NCBI GenBank assembly: GCA_964646765.1
Contig: CAZYIA010000003.1
Span: 66,815 to 130,814 of the forward strand
DNA: 64,000 bases
Origin: an uncultured Candidatus Saccharibacteria bacterium
GTDB lineage: Bacteria > Patescibacteriota > Minisyncoccia > Phycocordibacterales > UBA9973
Direction of reading: 5' to 3'
Shown here: positions 9,666 through 64,000 of the stretch, one piece after another
Position numbering within the stretch: position 1 is the stretch's first letter
Layout: each line of letters starts with the position of its first letter
Notes under the pieces: model-generated
Told to the model about the DNA's origin: nothing
What the model saw: the letters and a program-made list of their open reading frames with translations, nothing else
Databases searched by the model: none
Made by a program: the position numbers and the translations under genes

Positions 9666-9681
9666 ATAATAGAACTTTACT

Positions 9682-12082: not shown

Positions 12083-12089
12083 ATGAAAA

Positions 12090-12122: not shown

Positions 12123-12123
12123 A

Positions 12124-17074: not shown

Positions 17075-17256
17075 TTGGTTCGCTCCAAGAAACAGTCACC
17101 CTTCGCTTAATGATTCTTTGCGGAATCGCTCTTGTAGTTTTTGGAATTTTTCTTTCGCAACAGGTAACTATTCTGGCTGCAGATATTGCGTATCATCAGA
17201 CAGAAAATGAACATGCGTTAAACGAAACAGGAACTATAAAAAATCTCACCCAATGA
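17065..17256 (+). CDS. Small single-TM protein, translationally coupled (ATGCCAGTAA overlap) to the upstream gene
   Basis: 63 aa with one hydrophobic helix. Start and stop overlap the flanking genes. Confidence 0.35.
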   Translation: MPVIGSLQETVTLRLMILCGIALVVFGIFLSQQVTILAADIAYHQTENEHALNETGTIKNLTQ

Positions 17257-20957: not shown

Positions 20958-21593
20958 ATGAAAAAAAATTTTCTCATTTTTATATGTTTCCTGCTCATTA
21001 TCTTTATTGGAAGTGTGTGGTACATTCGCACTTCATCAGACCAGGAAGAAGCTATCCAGGCACCACTTATGGTGGTTTCTAGTCCTAGTGATGTGACCCA
21101 GCCACTCCCACAAAATACTTCGGTACTTCCGCAAGATACAACTGATACGACACTTCCCACACAGCTATCTATTCCTACTATTGGCGTAGAAACTTCTATA
21201 CAACAAGTTGGAGTAACCACGAGCGGCAATATGGCTACGCCGACAAATTATACGGATGTTGGTTGGTATAAGTATGGACCGCGGCCTGGTGAAATGGGAA
21301 GCGCCGTTATTGCTGGTCACCGTCGAAATGCAGCTTTTCTCCCTGCAGTTTTTTATCACATTAAAGATCTTGCGATAGGTGACGAAATTTTTATAACACG
21401 AAAGGATGGTACAAAACTCCGATTTAAAGTTATTCGGAGTGAGTTTTATAACTATGAAGATGTGCCAACACGACAATTATTTTTGGAAACTGGTGCCGCG
21501 TATCTAAAATTGGTTACCTGCGAAGGTGAGTGGCGAGAAGTTGATCGGACTGCTCGTGAGCGCCGAATTATAACCGCGATTCTAGAATCCTAG
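20958..21593 (+). CDS. Class F-like sortase (transpeptidase)
   Basis: N-terminal TM anchor and Pro/Thr-rich linker. Sortase core LSIPTIGVETSIQQVG...GSAVIAGHR (catalytic His) ... LVTCEG (TLxTC-type Cys) ... R (catalytic Arg). Confidence 0.8.
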   Translation: MKKNFLIFICFLLIIFIGSVWYIRTSSDQEEAIQAPLMVVSSPSDVTQPLPQNTSVLPQDTTDTTLPTQLSIPTIGVETSIQQVGVTTSGNMATPTNYTDVGWYKYGPRPGEMGSAVIAGHRRNAAFLPAVFYHIKDLAIGDEIFITRKDGTKLRFKVIRSEFYNYEDVPTRQLFLETGAAYLKLVTCEGEWREVDRTARERRIITAILES

Positions 21594-49035: not shown

Positions 49036-49639
49036 TCCTATTGAAATAATTACTTTCGATTTTTTCGGAGTGCTTTGTGCCCCAATGTACGGGGGATTAT
49101 TACGCGATTTATTTCCTGGTGATCAGGTCGCGTGGAGAAAATGGATGGACCTTGTTGAGTTTGAAGTTGATATCGGAACAGTCACTGAAGATGCTTTTAT
49201 TGAGCTTCTTTCTAAAGAGTGCGGTGTTCCTGCGCCAGAATTAAAGAATCGTTCCTATGAATACGCAAAACTGAATGAATCACTCTTTGAGATTATTGCC
49301 GACCTTAAGCATTACTATCGTGTTGGTCTTTTAACTAACGCTCCACGAAGTATCATTGAGACAGCACTTAAGGAAAAATTGGAGCTTTTTAATACGGTGA
49401 CCATTTCAGGTGATATTGGCATTATCAAGCCGCACGCGGAAATTTACGAACAGTACATTAAAGCTTGTGCGCTGCCGGCGGACAGAATATTTTTTACTGA
49501 TGATAACGTACGAAATGTTGCCGCAGCTCGAGTTTCAGGAATAATTGCAACCCAGTATCTCACCATTCCTCAGTTTTTACTTGATCTTGAGCACGAGGGT
49601 GTTGTATTCCCCCGATACCAAACACTCGAGAGTATCTAA
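49022..49639 (+). CDS. HAD-superfamily hydrolase
   Basis: ITFDFFGVL (motif I) ... LLTNAP (motif II) ... FFTDDNVRN (motif IV). Confidence 0.7.
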   Translation: MKIHDPIEIITFDFFGVLCAPMYGGLLRDLFPGDQVAWRKWMDLVEFEVDIGTVTEDAFIELLSKECGVPAPELKNRSYEYAKLNESLFEIIADLKHYYRVGLLTNAPRSIIETALKEKLELFNTVTISGDIGIIKPHAEIYEQYIKACALPADRIFFTDDNVRNVAAARVSGIIATQYLTIPQFLLDLEHEGVVFPRYQTLESI

Positions 49640-50127
49640 AGGTGCTTCTCGTAGATTACAAATGAATAGGGATAGGCATGAGCTTCATCTGGAGCGTAAT
49701 CGTCTCGGAAGGCCTCTTTCCATTCTTGGTCAATTTCAGGAAAGAAAGCATCTGCGTCAAAAGAACTATTAACACGGGTAATATATAGCCGGTTAGCATA
49801 GGGGAGAAAGAGTTTATAAATTTGTGCTCCTCCAATGACAAAAATTTCTTCATCAGAATCCTTAAAAAGATTCAACGCTTCTTCAACACTGCTCACATTT
49901 TCACATCCCGGAGCTTGATAATTTTCAGTACTTCGAGAGAGGACAATGTTGCGGCGGTTAGGAAGTGGTCGGCCAATAGATTCGAACGTTTTACGGCCCA
50001 TAATTACCGGGTGGCCACTAGTAGTCTCCCGAAAATGTCGCATATCTGCTGGCAAATCCCACAGAAGCTTATTATCTTTCCCGAGTTCATTATTTATACC
50101 AATGGCTGCAATCAGAGAGAGAATCAT
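49636..50127 (-). CDS. folA: Dihydrofolate reductase
   Basis: ISLIAAIGINNELGKDNKLLWDLPADMRHFRETTSGHPVIMGRKTFESIG...FVIGGAQIY. Confidence 0.9.
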   Translation of the reverse strand: MILSLIAAIGINNELGKDNKLLWDLPADMRHFRETTSGHPVIMGRKTFESIGRPLPNRRNIVLSRSTENYQAPGCENVSSVEEALNLFKDSDEEIFVIGGAQIYKLFLPYANRLYITRVNSSFDADAFFPEIDQEWKEAFRDDYAPDEAHAYPYSFVIYEKHL

Positions 50128-50217
50128 AGAGAGAGTGTACCACGGATCATAAAAAGTTAATCCTCTGTTTAGAGTTTCATTAGCAGCGATTTTCTATAGT
50201 TTTAAAAACCGTTCCCA

Positions 50218-50850
50218 ATGAAAAATCTATATTTCCTTACGTTATTACTCATAGCAGTAATCCTCCCCACAGCACGTGCACAAGTTGGACCTTGCCTGCA
50301 CAATCCAATTTTTTCTGACACCTGCTGCCCAATTGTAATGAATGAAATCCTTCCTGAAGGCTACAGCGGCGAAACTTGGGTTGAACTGTATAATTGCAAC
50401 CCTGATACCGCTGTAGTTCTGGAAGGGTGGTTTCTTTCTCCAAAACCGGATAGTACTTTCTTTGTTCCGTTTCCTCTCGGATACACAGTCTTACCAAATT
50501 ATTATCGAGTATTTTCGCTTCCGTTTACCATTTCGCGGTCGTTTGGGTTACTACAACTCTTTCGGCCAGACTCAACACTCGCGTACGGCATTACCTTTGA
50601 TAATGTTGCTATCGGCGAGTCGGTTGGTTATTGCGATTTAATAATTACTCGACAAACTCCCACTCCTGGATTGCCAAATAGTTGTACGGTAACAAGTATT
50701 TCTGAAGTTCCTTATACGGAAGGGAAACAGACGTTTCTCTATGACCTACTTGGCCGTAGGGTTGCTAGCCCTGTGTCAGGAATCTTTATTTCAGTCACAG
50801 AAGAACGAGGACTACGTTTAGTTAAGAAACTAACTTTACTTCGCGAATAG
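50218..50850 (+). CDS. Secreted lamin-tail-domain (LTD) protein with T9SS-type C-terminal sorting domain
   Basis: Signal peptide. INEILPEGYSGETWVELYNCNPDTAVVLEGWFL matches LTD (iNEi...ewvElyN...v.L.gw.L). The C-terminus FLYDLLGRRVASPVSGIFISVTEERGLRLVKK resembles the Por_Secre_tail / T9SS type-A CTD. Confidence 0.6.
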   Translation: MKNLYFLTLLLIAVILPTARAQVGPCLHNPIFSDTCCPIVMNEILPEGYSGETWVELYNCNPDTAVVLEGWFLSPKPDSTFFVPFPLGYTVLPNYYRVFSLPFTISRSFGLLQLFRPDSTLAYGITFDNVAIGESVGYCDLIITRQTPTPGLPNSCTVTSISEVPYTEGKQTFLYDLLGRRVASPVSGIFISVTEERGLRLVKKLTLLRE

Positions 50851-50853
50851 AAC

Positions 50854-50876
50854 AAAACCCGGTACCTGCCGGGTTT
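50854..50876 (+). terminator. Rho-independent terminator
   Basis: AAAACCCGG-tacctg-CCGGGTTT. Confidence 0.65.
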
Positions 50877-50920
50877 CGCGCTGCTAAGCTAGCATTGACT
50901 CCATTTGTGCTTGTGGTGCA

Positions 50921-51370
50921 ATGAAGAAACAACCCTTTTATATGAGCAATAAAAATAATGATGTACAAGATAAGCTAAAAGAGAGGATTAGGGGAGTTAC
51001 CAATAATCCCAGCCTTCAAAGAAACATTTACAAAGATGTAAAAGAATACTCTGAGGGTGTTCAAATAAATTTCCTCTTCTTTTTAGAAGACCGTGAAGCC
51101 ATTATTAGACGACCACTCAAAGTTGAGTGCCATAAAGTTGATTTACCAGAAGATGACCCTCTATCATGGACAGAATTCTGCATTCCCGGAGATATTCTTT
51201 TGTCAGTTAATCGTTTCTGGTTTCAAGGTTTTCTAATAGATGGTCAGGAAAGCAACAAGGTATTTCCCGTTCTTTACTTCTATATAGAAAATTTTAGGTT
51301 ACCTTCTCTTCCTTATGGAAAAAGAATCCTCACTCGCTGTTTTCTCAGCGACTTCATCAAAGCAGTGTAA
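50921..51370 (+). CDS. Hypothetical protein in a low-GC islet
   Basis: 149-aa ORF. Local GC is lower than the surroundings. No family recognised. Confidence 0.3.
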   Translation: MKKQPFYMSNKNNDVQDKLKERIRGVTNNPSLQRNIYKDVKEYSEGVQINFLFFLEDREAIIRRPLKVECHKVDLPEDDPLSWTEFCIPGDILLSVNRFWFQGFLIDGQESNKVFPVLYFYIENFRLPSLPYGKRILTRCFLSDFIKAV

Positions 51371-51410
51371 ATAGCAGATTGCTTGTATATCCCACACGCG
51401 ATCTGTTTTT

Positions 51411-51836
51411 TTATTTACGTCGATTTTGAAAATACGCAACTGCTGGAAATGATGCTTTAGCGATAGGTGAGGGAAGCGCATTAAGTGAAAACCACTCCAG
51501 CGCCTCACATTTTTCTGGCTCCTGAATTTTTGGAACACCTCTAATAATTTTCGCCTTAAAAATATTAGTTACCCAATGTTGGCTTTCTTCAGGTAAAAGA
51601 ACCTCATAAGCTGGAAGTTGTTCTAGAATTTCAATAGCTACATCAAGCTCTTCTTTCACTTCGCGAATAGCGGTTTGTTTGAGTGTTTCGCTAAAATCAA
51701 CTGTACCGCCAGGCACGCTCCATGCACCAACCTCATTTTTTGATTTTACCCCGCGCTTCATGAGTAAAAGCTCATCTTTTTCATTGAAGATGAAAACACC
51801 AACACCAAGGCCAATATAATCAACGCCAGCTTTCAT
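51411..51836 (-). CDS. NUDIX hydrolase (MutT-like)
   Basis: Nudix box GGTVDFSETLKQTAIREVKEELDV, matching Gx5Ex7REUxEExGU. Confidence 0.8.
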   Translation of the reverse strand: MKAGVDYIGLGVGVFIFNEKDELLLMKRGVKSKNEVGAWSVPGGTVDFSETLKQTAIREVKEELDVAIEILEQLPAYEVLLPEESQHWVTNIFKAKIIRGVPKIQEPEKCEALEWFSLNALPSPIAKASFPAVAYFQNRRK

Positions 51837-51838
51837 AT

Positions 51839-52777
51839 TTATACTGCAATCGGTGCACGAATCCCTTCATGCGACGTGTAGTTTTCGAGCGTGAAGTCAT
51901 CGATAGTAAAGTCGGCGATATTTTTTACATTTGGATTTAATTTCATTGTTGGCATTGGGTAGAGAGAATCTTTTCGTGAAAGTTGCAGTTTAGCCTGTTC
52001 GATATGATTTGAATACAAGTGAACATCACCACCGGTCCACACAAAATCTCCTGGTTCGAGGCCGGTTACTTGTGCAACCATCATAACTAAAAGGGCATAC
52101 GAGGCGATATTAAATGGAACACCCAAGAAGGTATCGCAACTTCGCTGATAGAGCTGGCATGAAAGTTTTCCGTTCGCTACATAGAACTGAAAGAAACAGT
52201 GACATGGCGGCAGTCCTGCTTTTGCCATCTCATCGATGTCGGCAACATTCCATGCTGAAACAATTAATCGGCGAGAGTTCGGATTATTTTTGATGTCCTC
52301 AATAACTTTTCCAAGTTGGTCGATGTGTTTACCGTTCGGTGCTGGCCAACTTCGCCACTGGTATCCATAAATTGGGCCAAGGTTGCCATATTCTTTGGCA
52401 AATGCCGGATCGGTTTTTATTTTCTCTACGAACCCTTTCATTTGGCTGTTCCAGTCTTCACCATTCACTTCAGGAATCGGGAGATTGTTTCTTTGAAGAT
52501 ATGCCTTAAATGGCCACTCGTTCCAGATAGGGACATTGTTGTCGGCCAAGTATTTTAAATTAGTGTCACCACGAACAAACCAAATGAGTTCGTGAATAAT
52601 TGATTTCAGCGGTACTTTTTTTGTAGTGAGTAGGGGGAAGCCTTTAGAAAGATCAAATCGCATCTGGTATCCAAAGATGCTTTTTGTGCCGGTACCGGTG
52701 CGGTCACTTTTATCCGTGCCCTCGTTTATAAGCTTTTCGAGGAGAGGGAGGTACTCTCGGTCAACGTGATATTCCAT
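51839..52777 (-). CDS. thyA: Thymidylate synthase (ThyA)
   Basis: [30 protein letters not shown]...[32 protein letters not shown]...[26 protein letters not shown]. Start at the internal Met (MEYHVD); the track ORF extends 14 codons further. Confidence 0.9.
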
Positions 52778-52916
52778 AGGCCGATTATAGGGCAAAGTGC
52801 ACTCTTTTTCCATTTGCAAAAAATATAGGAGGAGTACAATGAAAATAAGTCCGGTCCTGTACCGTCCCCAAACTGAATATTTGTTATAACCCTTTTAAAA
52901 ACCAAAACTTAAGCAC

Positions 52917-53234
52917 ATGAAAGCTAAATTACTCATTGTGACTGTAGCTCTGCTGTTATGCCAGCTCTGTCACGCACAGCAAAACGTTTTAAACGCATCA
53001 AGCGAAGTAAAGATTTACCCCAATCCTGCTGCCGGTACGTTATATGTAGTTGTAGATACTGCATCTAAAGTAACTATCTTTAACCTATTGGGAGAACCGC
53101 TGCCTGCTGCGAATGACAAATTAGTCTCTGCTGGTCGCACCGGCTTTGATTTTACTGAAGTACCGCAAGGGTACTATCTGGTGCAAGTACTTTCGAGAGA
53201 TGAAAAGTACACAAAACGAATTTTGAAGGAATAA
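52917..53234 (+). CDS. Small secreted protein consisting of a signal peptide plus a T9SS C-terminal sorting domain (Por_Secre_tail-like)
   Basis: SP MKAKLLIVTVALLLCQLCHA. Then VKIYPNPAAGTLYVVVDTASKVTIFNLLGEPL...DFTEVPQGYYLVQVLSRDEKYTKRILKE, matching the KIYPNPA ... IFNLLG ... G.YLV.V ... K.LK CTD pattern typical of Bacteroidota. Confidence 0.6.
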   Translation: MKAKLLIVTVALLLCQLCHAQQNVLNASSEVKIYPNPAAGTLYVVVDTASKVTIFNLLGEPLPAANDKLVSAGRTGFDFTEVPQGYYLVQVLSRDEKYTKRILKE

Positions 53235-53431
53235 TTTTTACCCAACATGTTTTAAAAGATTAGCCCTGGCTTCCCGTCAGGTGCTTTTCTTACCTGGATG
53301 AGGGTTGACAAATACATATGGTTGTGTTAATTTTTAACTACCATTCTCACTTATACATAATCGGGAATGACGATTATGGAAATCAGCGTACGCAGTTGTT
53401 GTGTTAGTTCTGATTAGCCATACACAACAAT

Positions 53432-54889
53432 ATGCAGAATATGCACCGAAGTGGTGCGCGCGGTAAAAATCCGACGCGTACCGGAACTTCGCAGGGAGGG
53501 CGAAAACCCCGCTCTAGCGGAGGACATTTTAATAGAGACGTCCAGCACCATGGAGGAGCGTTTCGGGCCGAAGGCCCACGACCATCATTTGGTCGTCGTA
53601 TTCACGTGCCTGGCGAAAGTCTTGGGCAGGGCAGCGAAAGCCGTCAATCAAAGCCGCAAGGCTTCCGTAGCCACGGAAGCAGTACTTTTCGTGCTCCGCG
53701 AACCGGAGGCTTTCGTGGCCGCTCGCAGGGCGGTTTTCGTGGAGGTGGAAGTCGTGGTGGTAATCGAGGCGGTGGTCGCAGTCGCGGCGAACGCATTGAT
53801 TACAGTCGTTTTATTCGTAAGGCAGAACTCGTAGAAGTAAAACCATACGTAGCCCAGCATTCATTTGTTGATTTTCCTTTTGACGCTCGTCTTGCAAAAA
53901 ATATAGAAAAGAAAGGATACGAAAAACCAACGCCAATTCAAGATCAAGCGATTCCATTTAGTTTGCTTGGCCGTGACATTTTTGGTTTGGCTAATACAGG
54001 AACAGGTAAAACAGCAGCCTTTCTCTTGCCGCTCATTCAAAAAGTATTAAACAGTCGCAAAGAACAAGTTCTTATTCTTGCGCCAACACGTGAACTTGCT
54101 CTCCAAATTGAAAAAGAATTTATTGAGTTTACCTACGGCACCAGCTTGTTTTCTGTGTCAGCTGTTGGTGGTATGCCAATTTTCCGTCAGATTACGAAAC
54201 TTAAGCGCGGAGTTTCCTTTGTTATTGGAACCCCAGGCCGTGTAAAAGATCTGATTGATCGCAAAGCACTTAATCTGGGAACTTTCAAATCAATCGTGCT
54301 CGATGAAGCTGATCGCATGCTTGATATGGGATTCCGTGATGACATGGAGTTTGTGATGAATAAAATGGGGGAAGATCGCCAAACGCTCTTTTTCTCAGCA
54401 ACAATCTCGCCAGACATTCGTAAACTTTCTGAAAAGTATCTCAAGGATCCTGAGTTTATTTCAGTTGTTGTTCGCGAAACTTCAAAGAATATTGATCAGG
54501 ATGTTGTCCGAGTTCTTTCTCGTGACAAGAAAATTGATCAGCTCCACGATATTCTTATCGGTGAGCAGGACAGCAAGATTCTTATCTTTAGTGAAACTAA
54601 GCGTGATGTTGATCGCCTTGCACGTGAATTAGTCGCTCGCGGTTTCCGCGTTGGGGCTATTCACGGCGACAAGCGTAACCGTGAACGTGTACGCACTCTT
54701 GAAGATTTCAAAACTGGCCGCATCGGTATTTTGATTGCTACCGACGTTGCTGCTCGCGGACTTGATATCCCAGATGTGACACATGTTATTAACTACGATG
54801 TGCCGCAAACGTACGATACCTACGTACACCGCATTGGCCGAACTGGCCGCGCAGGGAAGACTGGAAAAGCGTTAACCTTCGTTCATTAG
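53432..54889 (+). CDS. DEAD-box ATP-dependent RNA helicase with N-terminal Arg/Gly-rich (RGG) extension
   Basis: Q-motif/PTPIQ, GTGKT (motif I), PTRELA, DEAD (LDEADRMLDMGF), SAT, HRIGRTGRAG. The N-terminal approximately 120 aa are RGG/FRG repeats. Confidence 0.9.
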   Translation: MQNMHRSGARGKNPTRTGTSQGGRKPRSSGGHFNRDVQHHGGAFRAEGPRPSFGRRIHVPGESLGQGSESRQSKPQGFRSHGSSTFRAPRTGGFRGRSQGGFRGGGSRGGNRGGGRSRGERIDYSRFIRKAELVEVKPYVAQHSFVDFPFDARLAKNIEKKGYEKPTPIQDQAIPFSLLGRDIFGLANTGTGKTAAFLLPLIQKVLNSRKEQVLILAPTRELALQIEKEFIEFTYGTSLFSVSAVGGMPIFRQITKLKRGVSFVIGTPGRVKDLIDRKALNLGTFKSIVLDEADRMLDMGFRDDMEFVMNKMGEDRQTLFFSATISPDIRKLSEKYLKDPEFISVVVRETSKNIDQDVVRVLSRDKKIDQLHDILIGEQDSKILIFSETKRDVDRLARELVARGFRVGAIHGDKRNRERVRTLEDFKTGRIGILIATDVAARGLDIPDVTHVINYDVPQTYDTYVHRIGRTGRAGKTGKALTFVH

Positions 54890-54894
54890 GACTA

Positions 54895-54930
54895 AAGTCA
54901 AAAAGCCGCCTAAAGGCGGCTTTTTGACTT
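54895..54930 (+). terminator. Rho-independent terminator
   Basis: AAGTCAAAAAGCCGCC-taaa-GGCGGCTTTTTGACTT, a perfect 16-bp stem. Confidence 0.8.
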
Positions 54931-55003
54931 TATCGGTATTTTTAGTACAGTTCGGATAACCTATAAAAACATTAAATATTTTTTTTAACCTCAATCAATT
55001 TTT

Positions 55004-55378
55004 ATGAAGCCACAAAACAGCAATGGCGTTACTTTGGTTAGCTATATTCGCCAAATAGCTATTTTACTTAGCAATGTTCTTTACTTATTCGATGCTCCCG
55101 AGCGCGAAAAACATAAGGACCATAGCGAGCCCCCGAAAGATAAGACCTTAGGCGGCAATATTCCGCACGCATCATGGGTATTACCTATCATCATCAATAT
55201 CCTTCGGAGCGTACCCGCCCCTGACATGGAGCAGGAACTAAAGTTCCTAACTGCCGACCTCGACCTGACCGTGGAGGATAATTTCAAAAAGTTGCAGGAT
55301 TTTGTGGCTAAGCTCAAAGCGTTTAACAGCGCCTTTTCGCAAACCAGCGACAAGTATGAAGAGCATATCCACGATTAA
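55004..55378 (+). CDS. Hypothetical protein in a compositionally atypical islet
   Basis: 124-aa ORF with GC-richer codons than its neighbours, followed by hairpin GTGCAG...CTGCAC plus a T run (55407-55446). No family recognised. Confidence 0.3.
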   Translation: MKPQNSNGVTLVSYIRQIAILLSNVLYLFDAPEREKHKDHSEPPKDKTLGGNIPHASWVLPIIINILRSVPAPDMEQELKFLTADLDLTVEDNFKKLQDFVAKLKAFNSAFSQTSDKYEEHIHD

Positions 55379-55546
55379 CCAATTCAGCCGGTTACAAAAT
55401 GAGAAGGTGCAGCTAAACTTTACGGTTTATCTGCACTTTTTCTTTTTATCTTTTTCAGTGTATGATGGGGGCACGTAACCTCGTTCAGGCTTATGGTATA
55501 ACGATTCCACAACGCTTTTCCTATTATTTCTTAAGCTTATTTTGCT

Positions 55547-56803
55547 ATGCACTATCTCGAACAAGACCCTGAAATTTTCGCCGCTTTAAAAGGTGAAGAA
55601 AAGCGCCAAAAAGAAGGCCTCGAACTTATTCCTTCGGAAAACTACGTTTCCAAAGCCGTGCTTGAAGCGAACGGTTCTATTTTCACCAACAAATACTCAG
55701 AAGGATATCCAGGTCGCCGTTACTATGGTGGACAAGAATTTACTGATGTTGTTGAGCGTTTAGCAATTGAGCGCATTTGTAAACTCTTTAACTGTAAATT
55801 TGCCAACGTTCAGCCGCACTCAGGTGCACCAGCAAACTTAGCTGTGTATGCCGCACTCCTTGAACCAGGCGACACTGTGCTTGGTATGGATCTCTCACAT
55901 GGCGGTCACTTAACGCACGGTCACCCAATGACGCTGCCTGCTAAGATCTACAAATTCGTCACCTACAAGATGAAAGATCCTGACACAGGTGAAATTGATT
56001 ACGATCATCTCCGTCAAATGACACTTGAACACAAACCAAAAATTATTTTGGCTGGTTTTTCTGCATACCCTCGCACTCTCGACTACAAAAAATTTGTTGA
56101 GATTGCTAAAGAAGTTGGGGCAATTACGATGGCTGACATGGCACACATCGCAGGTTTGATTGCTGGTAAGGCGCTCCGCAATCCATTTGATGATGGTTTT
56201 GATATCATCACGTCAACTACTCATAAAACTCTTCGTGGTCCACGCGGGGGGATCATTCTCACTCGAGAAAATGAAGAGATCGCCAAGAAAATCGACAAAT
56301 CTATTTTCCCTGGAATTCAAGGTGGTCCACACATGCACACTATCGCTGCGAAGGCCGTTGCCTTCGGCGAAGCATTAACGCCTGCGTATCAAACCTACGT
56401 ACAGCAGATTTTGAAAAATGCCAAGGCAATGGAAGCTGTGCTCAAAGAGAAAGGTGTTCGGATGATTGGTGGGGGAACCGATAACCACCTTATCCTCGCC
56501 GACGTATTTGGCTCACTTGGTGTTACTGGAAAAGAAGCGCAAACAGTACTCGACGAAGTTGGAATTACACTCAACATGAACTCAATTGCTGGTGACACGC
56601 GCAAGCCGCTCGATCCATCAGGTATTCGTTTTGGCACTCCAGCTATCACTACTCGTGGCTTTAAAGAAAAAGAATGTGCCGAAGTTGCCGAACTCTTGAT
56701 TGAAACACTCAAAAATAAAGACGACGCAGAAAAGAAAAAAGAAATTCGGGCAAAAGTTTTGGCACTTGCTGAAAAATTCCCGATTCCGGAGAAGTTTGTG
56801 TAG
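55547..56803 (+). CDS. glyA: Serine hydroxymethyltransferase
   Basis: YYGGQEFTDVVERLAIERI...VQPHSGAPANLAVY...LSHGGHLTHG...TTHKTLRGPRGG (PLP lysine region). Confidence 0.9.
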   Translation: MHYLEQDPEIFAALKGEEKRQKEGLELIPSENYVSKAVLEANGSIFTNKYSEGYPGRRYYGGQEFTDVVERLAIERICKLFNCKFANVQPHSGAPANLAVYAALLEPGDTVLGMDLSHGGHLTHGHPMTLPAKIYKFVTYKMKDPDTGEIDYDHLRQMTLEHKPKIILAGFSAYPRTLDYKKFVEIAKEVGAITMADMAHIAGLIAGKALRNPFDDGFDIITSTTHKTLRGPRGGIILTRENEEIAKKIDKSIFPGIQGGPHMHTIAAKAVAFGEALTPAYQTYVQQILKNAKAMEAVLKEKGVRMIGGGTDNHLILADVFGSLGVTGKEAQTVLDEVGITLNMNSIAGDTRKPLDPSGIRFGTPAITTRGFKEKECAEVAELLIETLKNKDDAEKKKEIRAKVLALAEKFPIPEKFV

Positions 56804-56807
56804 CTCT

Positions 56808-57506
56808 ATGTCGGCTACGAAGAAAAAAGGAAAATTAATTGTTATTGATGGAACTGACGGCTCGGGTAAAGCAACTCAAGCTGCGCTTTTGGCTGCGCAT
56901 TTAAAGAAAGCAGGCTATAAAGTAGCAACCATTGATTTTCCGCAATATGGCGATAATTTTTTTGGTGAATTTCTTGGACGTTGTCTGTCGCGTCAGTACT
57001 ATAACTTCGTGAAGGTCCACCCTAAAATTGCTTCAGTTTTGTATGCAGCAGACCGTTGGGAGTCAAAAGAAAAAATTGAAGGTTGGCTTAACAAAGGTTA
57101 CATCGTGATTGCTGATCGCTATGTGTCAGCAAACCAAATTCACCAAGGTGGAAAAATAACGAGCACTAAGAAGCGCCGAGACTTTTTGAAGTGGCTCGAT
57201 GAGATGGAATACAACGTATTTAAAATTCCACGACCAAACCTGGTACTATACTTGTCACTACCACTTACTACCATGCGCTCTCTGATTAAAGAGCGCAATA
57301 AAAAAGAAGTCCGTGCCTATCTTGGCAAGGGGAAGGACGTACACGAAAAAGACATGGCGCACTTAGCGAATGCTCGCGAGAGTGCACTCAAGTTAGTGAA
57401 AGAGCTCAACAATTTCAAAAAAATTGACTGTGCTCCTGAAGGTAACCTTTTACCACCACCAGTTATTCACGAAAAAGTTTTTGAAGAAGTCTCAAAAATT
57501 ATATGA
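56808..57506 (+). CDS. tmk: Thymidylate kinase (dTMP kinase)
   Basis: P-loop IVIDGTDGSGKATQ, DRY-like ADRYVSANQIHQGG, and a lid region. Confidence 0.85.
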   Translation: MSATKKKGKLIVIDGTDGSGKATQAALLAAHLKKAGYKVATIDFPQYGDNFFGEFLGRCLSRQYYNFVKVHPKIASVLYAADRWESKEKIEGWLNKGYIVIADRYVSANQIHQGGKITSTKKRRDFLKWLDEMEYNVFKIPRPNLVLYLSLPLTTMRSLIKERNKKEVRAYLGKGKDVHEKDMAHLANARESALKLVKELNNFKKIDCAPEGNLLPPPVIHEKVFEEVSKII

Positions 57507-58018
57507 ACGCACGCATTCCAGTCGTTAATGAACAAGATGAAGTAATTGGCTACCGTATTCGCCGAGAATTGCAACCTGGCGATATTTTTCGAGTCACTGG
57601 TCTTTGGATTTATGATACCGAAGGTACTATTTTACTAGCTCGTCGAGCGGAAACTAAAGCGCTCCATCCAGGTTTATGGGCCCTTGGCGTTGCCGGGACT
57701 GTTGAAGAAGGGGAAACATATGACAGTAATATCGTGAAAGAAATGGGAGAAGAAATTGGCCTTACAGGTTACACCCCAACGTTCTTAAATAAAGAATTAC
57801 GCGACACTCCAGTGAAGGGGCTTCGTCGGTTTGCTTCGCACTACGCGGTGACTATCCCGCACGATTACCCATTTAAATTAAAGGAAGATGAAGTGGCAGA
57901 AGTTAAATGGTTCACCCCATCTGAAATTGACCAAGCAGTAACCGAGCATCCTGAATTATTTGTGCCAACATTTGTTTTGTACTATAAAGATTTTCTCTAT
58001 GCGGATTCCCATCGTTAA
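57503..58018 (+). CDS. NUDIX-family hydrolase (paralog 1)
   Basis: IPVVNEQDEVIGY...LLARRAETKALHPGLWALGVAGTVEEGETYDSNIVKEMGEEIGL (Nudix box). Confidence 0.7.
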   Translation: MNARIPVVNEQDEVIGYRIRRELQPGDIFRVTGLWIYDTEGTILLARRAETKALHPGLWALGVAGTVEEGETYDSNIVKEMGEEIGLTGYTPTFLNKELRDTPVKGLRRFASHYAVTIPHDYPFKLKEDEVAEVKWFTPSEIDQAVTEHPELFVPTFVLYYKDFLYADSHR

Positions 58019-58553
58019 TGAACAAGATGAAATAATTGGAGAGGAGGAGCGCGCAGTCATTCACCGTGATGGTTTACGACATCGGGAGATTCACGTATGG
58101 CTCGTTACTCCTCAAAAAGAATTTATCTTCCAAAAACGAGGTCCTCATCAAGATACCTGGCCCGGATATTTAGACGTTACCGTTGGGGGACATGTTGATA
58201 CTAAAACTGAATCATACGAAGAGTGTGCGAAACGAGAACTGTATGAGGAGACAGGGACGAAACTACCGATTACTCTTATCATAAAGCGTTATTCAGAAAG
58301 TTATGATCCAAATACTCAAACCAAGAACCACGCTTTTCGTGCCGTATTCGGGGCGATTTATACGGGAGCATTACATGATTTAAAAGTTGAAGAGGGTAAT
58401 GGTCAAGGTTTTATAAAATATTCCCTCGAAGAATTGAAATCTCTATCAGAAGAAGATAGAAAGAAATTTATTCCGCGATATTTTACCGAAGCTTATTTTG
58501 ATTTATTTCAGAAAATTATAACTACTCTTTTTAGTCATGAATCTCAAAATTAA
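57999..58553 (+). CDS. NUDIX-family hydrolase (paralog 2, tandem duplicate)
   Basis: IPIVNEQDEIIGE...FQKRGPHQDTWPGYLDVTVGGHVDTKTESYEECAKRELYEETG (canonical Nudix box). Confidence 0.7.
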   Translation: MRIPIVNEQDEIIGEEERAVIHRDGLRHREIHVWLVTPQKEFIFQKRGPHQDTWPGYLDVTVGGHVDTKTESYEECAKRELYEETGTKLPITLIIKRYSESYDPNTQTKNHAFRAVFGAIYTGALHDLKVEEGNGQGFIKYSLEELKSLSEEDRKKFIPRYFTEAYFDLFQKIITTLFSHESQN

Positions 58554-58959
58554 AAAACTGAAACCGGAAGCTAAACTTCCTCGCTATGCGCATCCTGGCG
58601 ATGTTGGTTTGGATTTGTTTGCCATGGAAACAGTAACGATTGCTCCAGGCGAGCACTATCGTTTTTGGCACGGTTTCGCGCTTGAATTTCCAGAAGGTTT
58701 CGCCGCGTGTGTGATGGATAAATCGAGCATTTCAAAAGCAGGGCTTAAAACCATGGGCGGTGTATTTGATGCTGGCTACAGAGGTGAATACAATACACAC
58801 TTAGTAAACCTTGGAAAAGAAGCGTACACATTTGAAGCAGGTGATAAAGTTGCTCAATTAGTTATTTTCCCAGTTGCACAGGCCAACATTGAAGAGGTGA
58901 GTGAGCTCACAGAATCATCTCGTGGTGAGGGAAGCTTTGGTTCCACAGGGAAAAAATAA
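58537..58959 (+). CDS. dut: dUTP diphosphatase
   Basis: dUTPase motifs AHPGDVGLDL, GVFDAGYRGE, RxxQLV and the C-terminal SSRGEGSFGSTG motif V. Confidence 0.9.
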   Translation: MNLKIKKLKPEAKLPRYAHPGDVGLDLFAMETVTIAPGEHYRFWHGFALEFPEGFAACVMDKSSISKAGLKTMGGVFDAGYRGEYNTHLVNLGKEAYTFEAGDKVAQLVIFPVAQANIEEVSELTESSRGEGSFGSTGKK

Positions 58960-58980: not shown

Positions 58981-61900
58981 ATGTCCAGTCTGTGGGGCGT
59001 CCTCGTTAGGTATAAAACACTCGTTGTTACTTTGAGTGTGGTTTTTCTGTATTCCGGAAGTGTCGCTCTTGCTGCAATGACGTATGTTGCACCCGGAGCA
59101 ACCACTGATCCTGCTGGAACTCCTGGGAACTATACTGTTGGCCCGCTTCTCTCTTACGGCTTTACCGCAACTTCGGGTCACAATAATGAAGCTCTCTACA
59201 TTGATGGGTCAGGAAACGTGGCAAGCGATCCGCTGTTCTATCGCTACTCAAGTACTGGTGATTTTGGTGTTGCTGGAAGTTTTGCAACGAATGAAATGGC
59301 CGCACTTAATTTAAATAGCAACAAGCAACAGGCTAGTTTAATGTATCAAAATACCGTAACTGGCGAACGAGCCCAGTATAGTGCAGGTGGCGGCGGATCT
59401 ATTGGTCTTGAGGCATCCTATGAAGACGGGGGGAACATGCTTAATACTTTTGACATGAACGCAAATGCTACGACACTTACCTGGGATCCAGATACTACTG
59501 ATGGTGTAACCACAAAAATTATTCAGTCGCAAAATGGGAGCGCATTTGCTGTTCCAGGAACATTTCTTTTATGGGACGATACAGCAGCAAATATTGAAGG
59601 GGCAATTGGGGTAGCTGATACTACAGCGCTGGGCGGTACACCAGGAACAGCCGCAATGACTAGTCGGAATACTGCAACGGGGAATATTGCTAGTTGGAAT
59701 ACAACCTATGATCCTGGACTCGGTGAAGCAGATGCTTCTGGGAGTGCTCAGAATGGTTCCACAATTGCCGTTATTGATTTAAATAGTACCCATTCAAATT
59801 TTGTTTTTTCAAACGATGGAGGTTCTACCTATTCATTAGTACAAGCTGAGGCAAGCAAGTCCTATATGGGGGTTAATACTGGTATTGCCCTATATCAGGC
59901 CATGATCAACTCATCAGGCAGTTTTAAAGTGAAAGATTCAGTACTCGACCAGCATGTGCTTGAGGCTAATGTTTCCAACTTTCATTTTGCAGTTGGAGAT
60001 CTCGATGAGGCAGTAAATAAAACTATGCTTACTCTCGATGACTTCAGTCGAGCAATTACATTTAGTTACGGTACAGGTACTCACGATTGGTATACATTCC
60101 CAGTTGGTGATGGAAATTCTGGCGAGGTATTAATGACTGACGGGAATGGACAGTTAAGTTGGGGAATCCCAGCAAGTAGCGGTTGGTCTCTTTCGGGTAA
60201 TACCGGAACAACTTATGGAACAAATTTTTTAGGAACAATTGATTCTGAAAATTTGCAGTTTCGAGTAAATAATCAACCATCTGGAATGATCGAGTGGCAG
60301 GGTACTTCTAATACTGGTTTTGGTTATTCAACCCTCACGAGTATTGTTTCGGGAGCTCAAAATGCGGCGTTTGGAATTTCGGCATTACAAAACAATCAGA
60401 ATGGTTTATTTAATTCAGCAATCGGAGCTTTTTCTTTATTCTCAAATACCGATGGTGATGAAAATACTGCAGTTGGTGCATATTCTCTCTATTCAAACCT
60501 TGCGGACTATAACGTTGCGGTAGGTCGATCAGCATTGACCACCAATACAACTGGTTCGAGCAACACAGCTATTGGACATCAAGCAGGGTATTCAATTACA
60601 TCTGGAAGTAATAATACTCTTGTTGGTTTTCATGCTGGTTACAATCAACAGACCGCTTCAAATAATATTGCTATCGGACGAGAAGCATTATTTGGATCCG
60701 GAACTCTCGCGAATAATACAGGAGCTTATAATATTGCAGTGGGATACCATTCTGGATATGCAAACTCTACAGGTAATTACAATCTATTTGCTGGATATAA
60801 TGCTGGTAGTGTAAATGATATAGGTTATGAAAACGTTTTTTTAGGGTATCAATCCGGATCGAATAATAGTAACGGTGGGCAAAATACATTTATAGGGCCT
60901 TCATCGGGTTATGCAAACACCTCGGGAAGTAATAACGTGTTTGTTGGAAATGGGGCTGGAAATGACAACAATAGTGGATTCTTTAATACCTACCTTGGAT
61001 CACAGGCGGGGAATCACACTACTTCTGGCTGGGAAAATACTGCAGTCGGAACATATGCAGGTGCCGCCAATACTACTGGAAAGACGAATATTTACGTAGG
61101 ATATCAGGCTGGTGCAAACGTTACCACCGGTAGTAGTAATATTATTATCGGACATGATATTAACGCTCCTTCTGCAACTACTGATGGCCAACTTTCAATT
61201 GGTAATCTCATTTTTGGTACCAATGTTGATGGTACCGGTACAACCATCTCAACCGGAAATGTTGGTATTGGTTTAAATAATCCGTCATATCGTCTTGATG
61301 TAAAAGCAAACTCTGGAGATGATGTTGCTCGATTCCAAGGTTCAACTGGCTCAGTTGCCTGTACGCTTTCTGGCGCAAACGGAATTATTAACTGTTCATC
61401 AGACCAACGACTAAAGAAAGATATAACATCCTTAGATACGACAACGCTCGGTAAGATTCTTTTACTCAACCCAGTAACATACCACTGGAATCAAGAAGAT
61501 TCTTCAGTAGCTCCTCATGCAGGTTTTATTGCTCAAGAAGTACAACAAGTATTTCCAGAACTTGTTGGGACAGATAAAGATACAGGATATCTCACGCTCT
61601 CTACCGTTGGGATGACGCCGTACATTGTTGAAGCAATTAAAGAAATCAATATGAAGATTAAACCTCTCGAAGATCTTCTATCTCAAGAAAATTCTTTTGC
61701 TGATCTACTGCGTACGTTCTTTGCAACAGCGGAGAATGGTATCGGTGATTTCTTTGCGAGCCGCGGGATGTTTAAAGAATCAATTTGTGTTGATGGAGAA
61801 TGTCTTACGAAAGACGATATTCATGCTCTTCTTCTACAAGCACGTGGAGGAACAACGGTAACTACAACGAACTCGGGAGGAGAGGAAGGAACAAACACTG

Positions 61901-62100
61901 ATAGTGGTAATACCACGGGAACTACTAATGGAGATGGCGGACAAGTCACTCCAACTGATACTGGAGGAACTACAGGAAATGATACTGACGTAACATCCAA
62001 CGATACAAGCTCTTCTGGAGATACTGGAATTTCTTCTGATACAGGTACTACTGGCGATACAGGAGGAGCGTCTCTTGATGGAGGTGAAGTAAGTTCATAG
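58981..62100 (+). CDS. Large secreted tail-fibre-like protein with repetitive fibre repeats and C-terminal peptidase-S74 intramolecular-chaperone (endosialidase chaperone) domain
   Basis: N-terminal signal-anchor. Long array of NTAxG/NNxxxG heptad-like fibre repeats (SNTAIGHQAGY...NNTLVGFHAGY...NNIAIGREAL...). Hallmark SDQRLKKDI ... GFIAQEVQQVFPELV chaperone motif. Thr/Gly/Asp-rich C-terminal tail. Confidence 0.75.
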   Translation: MSSLWGVLVRYKTLVVTLSVVFLYSGSVALAAMTYVAPGATTDPAGTPGNYTVGPLLSYGFTATSGHNNEALYIDGSGNVASDPLFYRYSSTGDFGVAGSFATNEMAALNLNSNKQQASLMYQNTVTGERAQYSAGGGGSIGLEASYEDGGNMLNTFDMNANATTLTWDPDTTDGVTTKIIQSQNGSAFAVPGTFLLWDDTAANIEGAIGVADTTALGGTPGTAAMTSRNTATGNIASWNTTYDPGLGEADASGSAQNGSTIAVIDLNSTHSNFVFSNDGGSTYSLVQAEASKSYMGVNTGIALYQAMINSSGSFKVKDSVLDQHVLEANVSNFHFAVGDLDEAVNKTMLTLDDFSRAITFSYGTGTHDWYTFPVGDGNSGEVLMTDGNGQLSWGIPASSGWSLSGNTGTTYGTNFLGTIDSENLQFRVNNQPSGMIEWQGTSNTGFGYSTLTSIVSGAQNAAFGISALQNNQNGLFNSAIGAFSLFSNTDGDENTAVGAYSLYSNLADYNVAVGRSALTTNTTGSSNTAIGHQAGYSITSGSNNTLVGFHAGYNQQTASNNIAIGREALFGSGTLANNTGAYNIAVGYHSGYANSTGNYNLFAGYNAGSVNDIGYENVFLGYQSGSNNSNGGQNTFIGPSSGYANTSGSNNVFVGNGAGNDNNSGFFNTYLGSQAGNHTTSGWENTAVGTYAGAANTTGKTNIYVGYQAGANVTTGSSNIIIGHDINAPSATTDGQLSIGNLIFGTNVDGTGTTISTGNVGIGLNNPSYRLDVKANSGDDVARFQGSTGSVACTLSGANGIINCSSDQRLKKDITSLDTTTLGKILLLNPVTYHWNQEDSSVAPHAGFIAQEVQQVFPELVGTDKDTGYLTLSTVGMTPYIVEAIKEINMKIKPLEDLLSQENSFADLLRTFFATAENGIGDFFASRGMFKESICVDGECLTKDDIHALLLQARGGTTVTTTNSGGEEGTNTDSGNTTGTTNGDGGQVTPTDTGGTTGNDTDVTSNDTSSSGDTGISSDTGTTGDTGGASLDGGEVSS

Positions 62101-62136
62101 TTCGACAGGGAAGCATCATCCTGTTACTATAATCGC

Positions 62137-63846
62137 GTGCAGGAACAACTCCGAAAATATCTTGAAGAAACCCTTACAACGCTTGCCATTTCTGCAGGTG
62201 ACTTTGTTATTGAGCATCCAGCTGATATGGCTCACGGTGACTACTCAACCAATGTGGCACTAGCGACCGCAAAAAAGGTTGGGAAAAATCCACGTGAACT
62301 TGCCCAAAAAATTACTGAGACGCTTATAGAAAAACAGTATCCGGAAATTAAAGACGTCTCAGTTGCCGGTCCTGGATTCATCAACATCACACTTACTCCA
62401 GAATTTTTCACTAACGCAACTAAAACTATTGTTGATGACGGTGTTACGTGGGGTCATAACAAAAAACTTTCAGGTAAGAAAATTATGGTTGAGTACACGG
62501 ATCCTAATCCGTTTAAACCATTTCATATTGGTCATTTGATGACGAACGCTATTGGCGAATCTCTTGCGCGTATTGTCGAATTTTCTGGTGCAACGACGGT
62601 GCGAGCAAACTACCAAGGTGATGTTGGCCAGCATGTGGCAAAAGCAATCTATGGACTCCAAAAAAATCCAATGCCAGAAGATATCACAACCGTTGCAAAA
62701 CAATCAGAATATATTGGTACTTGCTATGTGAAGGGGAGCGAGGCATACGAGAACGATCCAGAAGCAAAAAAAGAAATTGATCGTATTAACAAAGCAGTGT
62801 ACGAAAAGAGTGATCCGGAAATAAACAAGATGTATGACTGGGGAAGAAAAGTAACTCTCGAAGCGTTCGAAGACCTCTATGTTCTCCTAGGTACCAAGTT
62901 TAATCACTACTTTTTTGAGAGTGACATGGCGAAGAGCGGTACAGCTATTGTTCAAGCGAATGTTCCGAAAGTATTTGAAGAAAGCGATGGCGCTATTGTT
63001 TTTAAGGGAGAAAAGTATGATCCAAAGTTACATACTCGCGTTTTTATCAATGCAGCTGGCTTGCCAACGTATGAAACTAAAGAAATTGGTCTAACGAAAA
63101 CAAAATTTGAGAAGGAGCCTGATCTCGAGAAATCAATCGTTATTACTGCGGTTGAGCAGGGTGAGTACATGAAAGTTGTTACTAAAGCAATTTCACTACT
63201 CTATCCTGATATTGCGCCGCGCATGCAGCATATTACGCACGGCATGATGCGCTGGGCGCACGGGAAGATGAGTTCACGAAAAGGGAATGTGGTTACCGGT
63301 GAATCTCTTATTCATGACTCCTGCGAAATTATTTTTGAGAAAATTAAAGATCGTGAGTTTAGTGAAGAAACTCAGAAACATATTGCTGAGGCTGTTGGTA
63401 TTGGTGCAATTAAATATTCTATTCTTCGTCAGGCAATTGGCGGCGATATTATTTACGATATGGAGAAATCGTTTTCGTTTGAAGGTGATTCTGGCCCGTA
63501 TCTTCAGTATGCAACTGTTCGAGCAAAATCAATTTTAGAAAAAGCAAAAGTTGCTGGCATTACTCCGCTCGCTAAACCTCTCGATTGGCAAGTTACTTCT
63601 CTCGAGCGATACCTCTATCGTTTTCCTGAAGTTGTTGAGCGGGCACTTACAGACTTAGAACCCCATCATATTGCTACGTACTTAATTGAACTTTCAAGTT
63701 TGTTCAATGCTTTTTATGCTAATCACCAAATCATTAATGTGGAAGATGCGCATTCACCGTATAAGGTTGCTTTAACCAACGCTTTTGCCATTACGATGGA
63801 AAATGGTCTCAAACTCCTTGGTATTCGGGTGCCAACAGCAATGTAA
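62137..63846 (+). CDS. argS: Arginine--tRNA ligase
   Basis: Class I HIGH-type motif region (PNPFKPFHIGHL), KMSSR (KMSKS equivalent), and an anticodon-binding DALR domain at the C-terminus. Confidence 0.9.
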   Translation: MQEQLRKYLEETLTTLAISAGDFVIEHPADMAHGDYSTNVALATAKKVGKNPRELAQKITETLIEKQYPEIKDVSVAGPGFINITLTPEFFTNATKTIVDDGVTWGHNKKLSGKKIMVEYTDPNPFKPFHIGHLMTNAIGESLARIVEFSGATTVRANYQGDVGQHVAKAIYGLQKNPMPEDITTVAKQSEYIGTCYVKGSEAYENDPEAKKEIDRINKAVYEKSDPEINKMYDWGRKVTLEAFEDLYVLLGTKFNHYFFESDMAKSGTAIVQANVPKVFEESDGAIVFKGEKYDPKLHTRVFINAAGLPTYETKEIGLTKTKFEKEPDLEKSIVITAVEQGEYMKVVTKAISLLYPDIAPRMQHITHGMMRWAHGKMSSRKGNVVTGESLIHDSCEIIFEKIKDREFSEETQKHIAEAVGIGAIKYSILRQAIGGDIIYDMEKSFSFEGDSGPYLQYATVRAKSILEKAKVAGITPLAKPLDWQVTSLERYLYRFPEVVERALTDLEPHHIATYLIELSSLFNAFYANHQIINVEDAHSPYKVALTNAFAITMENGLKLLGIRVPTAM

Positions 63847-64000
63847 CAAGGCGTGAGATAGACTCGTTATATGTAGCAGAACAACGTTGTTCGTAAACAG
63901 GTTATGCCTTGTGAGCATAGCCTGTTTCTTGCTTTTTTACTCTTACTCCCTATACTTTAAGAAAGCGATACAGGAGCTATCACTCCTGTGCTCCGGAAAG

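Follow-up and report, generated by a model that had tools for sequence, protein, structure and literature searches.

Why should a bacterium of the Patescibacteria, or Candidate Phyla Radiation (CPR), carry a gene for a phage tail-fibre-like protein between dut and argS? The question is posed by a 64,000-nucleotide stretch of contig CAZYIA010000003.1 from an uncultured Candidatus Saccharibacteria bacterium (the whole of it is called the window below), in which a reading of the sequence alone had found a 1039-residue open reading frame (ORF) at this place and had taken it either for a domesticated fibre used by the cell as an adhesin or for the sole recognisable remnant of a prophage. The ORF lies exactly where that reading had put it, and an identical protein (P0001) is present in public data (NCBI, Logan), with the same gene call on the Logan contig. 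From profile searches, structure prediction and the comparison of related loci, we posit that the gene probably encodes a chromosomal, Sec-exported surface fibre derived from phage tail fibres, which is matured by its S74 domain and binds a partner. The parts of the gene and its two borders are as follows.

58981–62100, plus strand: whole fibre gene, from the ORF list with an ATG start, for a putatively exported, phage-fibre-like protein of 1039 residues with a C-terminal S74 chaperone.
58981–59073, plus strand: leader, residues 1–31, with n-region R10/K12, h-region 13–28 and AxA site A29-L30-A31, then A32; from hydropathy and sequence.
59074–59265, plus strand: conserved post-leader motif, residues 32–95, TYV.PG..DPAG.PG.YTV ... 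GH.NE.LY.DGSG...SD..F.R, with 28 invariant columns shared by seven members of the subfamily described below.
59266–60075, plus strand: N-terminal beta-meander module, residues 96–365, with one TWDxDTTD unit; from AlphaFold2 (AF2) and a 20-sequence alignment.
60076–60300, plus strand: junction motifs, residues 366–440, FP.GDG..G.VL.TDG.G.LSW and WSLSGNTGT..NFLGTID...L.F.VNN, widespread in cellular S74 fibre proteins.
60301–61200, plus strand: shaft, ~16–17 copies of a 17-residue repeat, a predicted beta-solenoid; from autocorrelation, AF2 and PHROG.
61201–61398, plus strand: neck and distal tip of the putative mature fibre, residues 741–806, including GNVGIGLNNPSYRLDV and the Cys794/Cys805 hairpin before the predicted cleavage site; from sequence, with AF2 strands at 794–797 and 802–805.
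61399–61695, plus strand: S74 intramolecular chaperone/autoprotease, residues 807–905, with Ser807 (61399–61401) and Lys812 (61414–61416); from Pfam, alignment and Foldseek.
61696–61845, plus strand: subfamily-specific post-S74 extension, residues 906–955; from AF2 and a survey of cysteine motifs.
61846–62097, plus strand: disordered acidic tail, residues 956–1039, T/G/D/S-rich (G 26, T 26, D 14, S 14 %) and K/R-free, with a predicted local distance difference test score (pLDDT) below 50.
58537–58959, plus strand: dut (Pfam dUTPase), upstream border of the slot in which the gene lies, with a 22-nt gap to the fibre gene.
62137–63846, plus strand: argS, downstream border of the slot (Pfam), 36 nt after the fibre gene, with synteny in four genomes.

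Architecture of the fibre protein

Peptidase_S74 (PF13884) is the only Pfam domain found in the protein; it matches residues 807–862 over profile positions 1–57 of 58 (E 2.3e-18) and scores 66.7 bits, far above the gathering cutoff (GA) of 22. The motifs on which the sequence-only reading had relied are both confirmed, SDQRLKKDI starting at Ser807 and GFIAQEV at 848–854, and the Ser–Lys dyad is present as S807-D-Q-R-L-K812, with Ser807, Lys812 and Ala851 invariant in an alignment of 35 family members. An AF2 monomer built from this alignment is confident over 810–905 (pLDDT 74–91) and recovers solved chaperone folds. Foldseek against the PDB returns the intramolecular chaperone auto-processing (ICA) domain of MyRF (7dc3) with probability 1.00, a template modelling (TM) score of 0.63 and a root-mean-square deviation of 2.5 Å over 117 columns, followed by the intramolecular chaperones 3gw6 and 3gud at probabilities of 0.90–0.99, and a family profile searched against the same database finds a long tail fibre distal subunit (6f45, E 1e-18), MyRF (7dc3, E 1.2e-14), a putative tail fiber protein (8jov, E 2.8e-14) and a neck appendage protein (3gud, E 4.3e-5). 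Sequence and model together lead us to place the protein in the S74 domain family; the only defining testable feature that it appears to lack is a terminal position of the domain, which is an architectural difference and no argument against the identity of the domain itself.

The region beyond the domain is characteristic of what we call the CPR-type subfamily, represented here by 13 inspected members, one of which (P0290) is a truncated entry of 232 residues. In the AF2 model the long S74 helix is continued (875–927) and leads into a hairpin (934–943) that bears Cys936-x4-Cys941 and then into a further helix (944–954), and no Pfam or NCBIfam model matches this extension. The distance from the dyad serine to the end of the protein is 233 residues in the target, with a subfamily median of 210 versus 138 in other relatives. 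The motif C-x(2-9)-C-[IVL]-[TND] recurs in 10 of the 11 CPR-type members with an automatically located S74 site and in 0 of 34 other relatives; counted over the whole subfamily, the extension with this motif is found in 11/13, and the dyad by strict pattern likewise in 11/13, P0288 having only a looser S-D-x3-K and P0290 none. Tails poor in K and R and rich either in T/S/G/D or in Pro are common to the members, equivalents of the acidic tail seen here.

At the opposite end, hydropathy and sequence identify a single N-terminal hydrophobic segment, residues 13–28. The sequence-only reading had called it a signal-anchor; the segment is indeed there, but it resembles a cleavable Sec signal peptide more closely than an anchor, and we regard the leader as a probable Sec signal peptide, with an uncleaved anchor as the alternative. 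Its n-h-c layout with an AxA site is common to 13/13 subfamily members on a heuristic reading of their sequences. The motif that follows keeps ~60% identity where the adjoining module drops to ~30%, and it is a candidate handle for attachment to the envelope.

The N-terminal module is modelled as ~25 consecutive antiparallel strands (mean pLDDT 76.6, core 85–96, in a monomer). No close fold for it was found in the PDB, where engineered OspA sheets and VDAC barrels match best, at TM <= 0.38, and a viral structure library gave weak matches, mostly to neck appendage, baseplate and tail-fibre proteins. When residues 33–430 were searched exhaustively with HMMER, 447 proteins came up at E <= 1e-3 and only 8 at E <= 1e-30; most of the 447 cover only the last ~65 residues of the query (~330–398), that is, the junction motif, and the junction motifs are also visible in Bacteroidota relatives. 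The fibre repeats that had been noticed from the sequence prove real, with a strict 17-residue period: identity autocorrelation reaches 0.345 at lag 17 and 0.27 at lag 34 over a background of ~0.08, and the copies, with the consensus N-[TIV]-x-[VIL]-G-x3-[AG]-x2-N-x-[ST]-G-x2, span residues 454–736. Since no tandem repeat is detected at the DNA level in the gene, we take the copies to be old. The shaft model is solenoid-like with one strand per repeat (pLDDT 70–92, again a monomer). Further along, in the tip, 6 of 12 CPR-type members share the Cys794/Cys805 pair, as against 0 of 7 Bacteroidota relatives inspected.

Phage ancestry and a variable chromosomal slot

Both halves of the protein appear, by sequence, to descend from phage fibres. 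Shaft and S74 match PHROG families of virion structural, tail spike and tail fibre proteins at E 1e-17 to 1e-47 (for the shaft, virion-structural and tail-spike families at E 1e-30 to 1e-47, with phage tail proteins at 30–38% identity), and a tblastn search with residues 431–1039 matches 642 deposited phage genomes. The phage fibre matches show 29–38% identity over 70–85% of this query; they include the 'tail structural protein' of Roseobacter phage CRP-1 (31.5% identity over 85%), the 'tail fiber' of Pelagibacter phage HTVC112P and the 'tail spike' of Bacillus phage SPO1. For the N-terminal module, tblastn against deposited phage genomes gave no match, and a scan of viral contigs with the whole protein gave only a match in the repeat region (contig L002). 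The relatives of this module fall into two classes, namely CPR-type proteins with the layout of the target and leaderless, S74-less proteins with coiled-coil or collagen-like N-termini. One of the leaderless class, P0295, has its coding sequence at 100% identity on a 32.8-kb viral contig (L003, IMGVR_UViG_3300020047_008020), with large ORFs upstream (one of them a weak tail-protein match), HNH endonucleases further upstream and an endolysin/M23-type peptidase downstream. It is 31% identical to the target in two stretches (E 1e-11) and 32% identical over 379 residues (E 3.5e-31) to P0269, the protein that takes the place of our fibre in a related genome. The viral contig (GC 0.384 versus 0.429) has the fibre alone in common with the CPR loci. 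Its fibre gene (10001–12271, 757 residues) encodes the TWDxDTTD beta-meander module that the CPR fibres also have, and the contig carries a tRNA-Ile(TAT) at 17140–17212.

The surroundings of the gene are cellular. In a Pfam scan all 40 flanking and window proteins were of this kind: the window holds thyA, a NUDIX gene, a DEAD-box helicase gene, glyA, tmk, two more NUDIX genes, dut and argS, as well as ribonucleotide reductase, pyrD, nusG, transporters and an FKBP isomerase, and the sequence to 10 kb past the window end holds argS, ileS, an EamA transporter, a CYTH protein, a hydrolase, recO and a CLIPPER-like protein. The closest named relatives of the window's ArgS, at ~62% identity, come from 'Patescibacteria group bacterium', Candidatus Nomurabacteria and Candidatus Pacebacteria, which assigns the source genome to the Patescibacteria. 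No capsid, terminase, portal, tail, integrase or lysis gene occurs within 59 kb upstream and 10 kb downstream of the fibre gene, which bears out the earlier remark that no other phage structural genes flank it and leaves no full prophage around it over this span. In composition the gene (GC 0.423, GC3, at third codon positions, 0.278) resembles its neighbours, and its synonymous-codon score of 0.125 lies in the range of 20 neighbouring genes (0.054–0.172); we considered a recent transfer and reject it, as GC, GC3 and codon usage show no anomaly. A signal scan finds no terminator-like site in the dut–fibre or the fibre–argS gap, a promoter-like site at 62102–62130 before argS, and a strong terminator-like hairpin at 63895–63927 after argS. 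No paralogue of the fibre was found within the window, and neither PADLOC nor NCBIfam gives a match to the fibre protein.

The order thyA (minus strand), small Por_Secre_tail protein, DEAD, x, glyA, tmk, NUDIX, NUDIX, dut, slot, argS, ileS is kept in four genomes, and the slot between dut and argS holds in each of them something different:

Target: the 1039-residue S74 fibre.
L008 (ArgS 82% identical to that of the target): a 1010-residue S74 protein, identical to P0269.
JGI sister genome (3300050046, a 155,266-nt contig; ArgS 80%): a 218-residue protein without a Pfam match.
L009 (ArgS 65%): 300 nt of non-coding DNA.

These sequence comparisons show that the fibre gene sits in a slot of variable content, within a housekeeping region that is otherwise stable. 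The JGI sister genome has two S74 fibres (P0002 and a 1167-residue neighbour) elsewhere on its contig, after the L10–L7/L12–purH genes. The sequence-only reading had found it notable that the fibre lies beside a thymidylate-synthesis gene set reminiscent of phage nucleotide metabolism; because the gene order is kept in four genomes, two of them without a fibre at this place, we take this neighbourhood to be native cellular synteny, and its position beside the fibre reflects neither a conserved nor a functional link.

The way in which the fibre differs between genomes is informative. The target and L008 are 79% identical in DNA as far as the end of dut, 77% over leader codons 11–31 and 73% in argS, and the two fibre proteins align only at residues 1–226 (36%) and 731–944 (35%). 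By region, identity to P0269 is 59% in the leader, 59% in the post-leader motif, 28% in the core of the N-terminal module, 26% in the repeat region (P0269 has four TWDxDTTD units and no 17-residue repeats), 21% in the neck and 47% in the S74 domain. In the comparison with P0002, the distal neck, tip and S74 domain are the best conserved parts (68–72%), and in some subfamily members without repeats the junction motif is joined directly to S74. This regional pattern, together with the repeat-less members, shows a conserved 5' handle and a conserved 3' folding module with a replaceable body.

Five other CPR-type fibre loci (P0002, P0046, P0041, P0060 and P0269) all lie amid housekeeping genes, one of them with a tandem paralogue. 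P0046 stands between S30AE-FKBP and fmt-def-lepB-hisS-RNR, P0041 downstream of argS-ileS-recO-CLIPPER, and P0060 between rpoB-rpoC-HEPN/MNT and leuS. Scans of species-representative genomes, with the whole protein and with the alignment of the N-terminal motif, gave no confirmed relative, nor did a metagenome scan with the N-terminal motif alignment. Directly 3' of the 1778-residue fibre gene P0041 lies a Y1 (IS200-type) transposase gene (L006, 15416–16084), a possible vehicle for the movement of fibre genes within CPR genomes.

Several observations concern the neighbourhood in its own right. The dTMP-synthesis genes occupy 49636–58959, with folA, a NUDIX gene and thyA on the minus strand, followed by the DEAD helicase gene, glyA, tmk, two NUDIX genes and dut. 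The longest ORF of tmk begins at a TTG (56700–56807) and overlaps the end of glyA by ~100 nt; public calls begin ~36 codons later (232 residues), probably at the true start. The NUDIX protein at 57503–58018 weakly matches the PADLOC candidate PDC-S07 (27.9 bits), which is probably generic NUDIX similarity. At 52917–53234 (plus strand) a secreted protein of 105 residues carries Por_Secre_tail, the C-terminal sorting domain of the type IX secretion system (T9SS; 39.3 bits versus a cutoff of 27), and has a 99-residue counterpart at the matching place in the JGI sister genome. T9SS is a system of Bacteroidota and the FCB group, and its sorting domain is odd in a Patescibacteria genome. Just past the window, ileS (L001, 15169–18675) has a His_Phos_1 (phosphoglycerate-mutase-like) domain inserted in its catalytic domain, a fusion conserved in all related genomes examined (L006, L008 and L009). 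Near the start of the window, 1682–12082 (plus strand) encodes three consecutive giant secreted proteins (1410, 1255 and 767 residues), each ending in PG_binding_1 and between them also bearing GLUG, Peptidase_M26_N, Laminin_G_3, Big_5 and chitobiase C-terminal domains, which are probably another set of surface or adhesion proteins.

Proposed mechanism and competing explanations

We suggest the following course for the protein. The leader would direct export, and outside the membrane the S74 domain, by homology, would bring three chains into register and nucleate folding of the neck and of the 17-residue-repeat beta-solenoid; the homology invoked for the trimer and the cleavage is that to the S74 domains of endosialidase, T5 pb1 and Bd3182 of Bdellovibrio bacteriovorus, one of the predator's mosaic adhesive trimer (MAT) fibres (PMC10769870). 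The dyad Ser807/Lys812 would then cut the chain at Ser807, releasing a 233-residue fragment composed of chaperone, Cys-hairpin extension and acidic tail and exposing a disulfide-stapled hairpin as the tip. The mature fibre of ~775 residues may stay on the cell through its N-terminus, either by an uncleaved leader or by the post-leader motif and beta-meander module seated on an envelope component. By analogy with MAT fibres and from the evolutionary behaviour of the locus, it would bind the surface of a partner or host cell, or another substrate. The gene would evolve by replacement of modules in the dut–argS slot, with parts that also occur in virion fibres. The conserved cysteine pairs, together with a VKOR homologue in the window, fit an extracytoplasmic protein. 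That VKOR-family protein is encoded at 17609–18607 (plus strand) and a sortase at 20958–21593 (plus strand), both relevant to the maturing of surface proteins with cysteine pairs; the VKOR family serves extracytoplasmic disulfide formation.

For the view that the cell has domesticated a phage-type fibre speak the S74 domain, the phage-shared repeats, the Sec-type leader, the native composition and the five CPR housekeeping loci, so that this part of the sequence-only reading stands, with the adhesin role a suggestion that we draw from analogy. Several points weigh against a partner-binding surface fibre. The neck (742–791) has pLDDT <50 and all structure models are monomeric; the S74 domain is not at the extreme C-terminus, as ~134 residues (906–1039) follow it; and, should the leader be cleaved, no recognised anchor was found, there being no LPXTG, lipobox, C-terminal transmembrane segment or wall-binding Pfam domain. 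Expression, export, trimerisation, cleavage, surface location and binding stand here at the level of inference. The portion of the genome inspected is ~74 kb, and phage-derived machinery may lie elsewhere. A single-sequence and a profile search of all PDB chains returned no Bdellovibrio entry at E <= 1, a weak negative, as most of the MAT constructs that were crystallised are variable tips. For cultivated Patescibacteria the literature credits type IV pili with host attachment, and our search of it turned up no work that connects CPR to S74 or tail-fibre-like surface proteins.

Could the gene still belong to a phage, as a plain prophage tail fibre or as all that is left of a decayed prophage between dut and argS? 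Both of its halves are homologous to virion fibre proteins, and the slot is occupied in only some genomes, as insertion sites are; yet the 59 kb upstream and 10 kb downstream hold no phage gene, composition and codon usage equal those of the neighbours, the Sec-type leader is conserved in the subfamily and missing from virion-type relatives, the positional orthologue in the genome with 82% ArgS identity is intact at 1010 residues with the same leader and S74 domain, and four further relatives sit amid housekeeping genes. We find a prophage origin of this kind scarcely tenable, and the remnant proposed by the sequence-only reading is left unsupported; by context and leader, the protein is not a virion or prophage fibre. 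It is also very improbable that the fibre serves a phage-derived particle encoded elsewhere, such as a tailocin, an extracellular contractile injection system (eCIS) or a gene-transfer-agent-like particle: such fibres assemble in the cytoplasm and need no Sec leader, which the subfamily always has, no sheath, tube or baseplate gene occurs at the six CPR loci examined, and the conserved cysteine pairs suggest folding outside the cytoplasm. That eCIS and tailocins do use tail-fibre proteins, some with S74 domains, and that only ~74 kb of the genome were inspected, are what keeps this explanation in view.

Two further explanations accept export and dispute the role. A secreted and released tailspike-like enzyme, a polysaccharide depolymerase digesting host or biofilm glycans, seems quite improbable to us: Pfam, NCBIfam and PHROGs show no catalytic domain and only fibre or virion-structural families, the shaft is a short-period (17-residue) solenoid and the N-terminal module has no enzyme-like fold match, even though S74 was first described in endosialidase tailspikes, two of the phage matches are annotated 'endo n acetylneuraminidase', and the protein has no recognisable anchor if the leader is cleaved. 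Unlikely as well, if by no means negligible, is an exported surface fibre without adhesive function, either an envelope or glycocalyx-like structural fibre or a decoy or receptor mask against phages, the latter idea arising because the N-terminal module is one that a phage fibre carries. Fast turnover of modules at a fixed locus is also what arms races between phage and host would produce, and the neck, tip and S74 domain are the parts best conserved with P0002 (68–72%), unlike variable receptor-binding tips. No PADLOC defence model matches, however, the host of the module-sharing phage L003 could not be assigned, and the cellular S74 fibres that have been characterised are adhesins (PMC10769870).

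Relation to known fibres and significance

The partner-binding surface fibre that we favour is best set beside the MAT fibres, its nearest analogues with experimental characterisation. Bdellovibrio bacteriovorus has 21 chromosomal trimeric fibres with signal peptides, of which 13 end in S74 with SDxxxK, and these share a conserved, beta-rich N-terminal domain of ~130 residues after the signal peptide that is presumed to bind the predator's own surface (PMC10769870). Self-cleavage has been demonstrated for Bd3182 with an S782A control, and MAT fibres are located at the surface and bind prey glycans (Caulton et al. 2024, PMC10769870); the MAT-like proteins listed there in other organisms include no Patescibacteria (PMC10769870). 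Like the S74 subgroup of MAT (e.g. Bd3182), the protein studied here is chromosomal and not of a prophage, ~1000 residues long, and combines a signal peptide, a conserved N-terminal part, a beta-rich shaft and a C-terminal S74 with SDxxxK. Domain swapping is mosaic in both, between paralogues in the case of MAT, and the MAT producer lives by attaching to other bacteria, as may the bacterium studied here, a tiny and probably host-dependent one. In contrast, the producer here is a patescibacterium and not a diderm predator, the solenoid has a 17-residue period, the N-terminal module is shared with a virion, and a Cys-hairpin extension and acidic tail follow S74. The fibre may work like a MAT fibre by analogy of architecture, and no sequence link to the MAT structures was found that would place it in that family.

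Phage fibres and spikes (3gw6, 3gud, 6f45 and 8jov; CRP-1, HTVC112P and SPO1) resemble the protein in joining a repeat shaft to S74, in the dyad and in the fold, but they are virion components encoded among structural modules, without signal peptide and with terminal S74, whereas the target has a Sec-type leader, a housekeeping context, native codons and an extension. Closer in setting are the 'tail fiber domain-containing proteins' of Bacteroidota (P0014 from Flavobacterium sp., P0018 from Bacteroidia, and P0024), which are cellular and have a signal peptide, WSL.GN.GT..NFIGT.D, NTA.G repeats and C-terminal S74. They differ in their N-terminal domain and end ~100–160 residues past the catalytic Ser with a coiled coil; they are without the TWDxDTTD module, the cysteine pairs and the extension, and some (P0067, P0107 and P0111) carry the T9SS sorting domain PF18962. 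The eukaryotic MyRF ICA domain (7dc3), the best structural match of the S74 region, likewise exemplifies a phage chaperone/autoprotease recruited to a cellular membrane-associated protein, but MyRF is a membrane-tethered transcription factor without a fibre shaft, whose cleavage frees the N-terminal part to the nucleus. With trimeric autotransporter adhesins of the YadA family the protein has in common the concept of a trimeric repetitive adhesin; here, trimerisation would come from S74 and not from a C-terminal beta-barrel. The label trimeric autotransporter adhesin, which JGI gives to relatives, we reject, as Pfam finds no YadA head or anchor and the PDB profile matches contain no YadA; a weak YadA_head match in relative P0009 scores 24.5 bits versus a cutoff of 25. 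Among cellular S74-matured fibres, the distinguishing features are the CPR host, the N-terminal module shared with a phage, the post-S74 extension and the variable slot, the last three of which had escaped the sequence-only reading.

As a bolder proposal, which we put forward tentatively and regard as somewhat unlikely, the lineage may use S74-matured trimeric phage-derived fibres as a host-recognition organelle, diversified, as phage receptor-binding proteins are, by cassette replacement at dut–argS and by exchange of modules with phages; the repertoire of such fibres, beyond type IV pili alone, would help to set the range of partners, and the Cys-hairpin extension and acidic tail would serve as a new device for export or tethering in the assembly of these fibres on a monoderm-type envelope.

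Little is known of how the ultrasmall CPR/Patescibacteria find their hosts and keep hold of them, and this fibre gene is a second, concrete candidate besides type IV pili. The fibre has the processing chemistry that the prey-binding MAT fibres of Bdellovibrio need, and it evolves in a way typical of recognition proteins, with a conserved handle, a swapped body and a variable locus. Should its role prove to be purely structural or that of a decoy, it would still be a clear case against taking a solitary 'tail fibre' gene in a metagenome-assembled genome for a prophage. Another major bacterial lineage joins Bdellovibrio and MyRF as a known case in which cells have put the S74 chaperone to use, and a traffic of modules between CPR genomes and phages is indicated.

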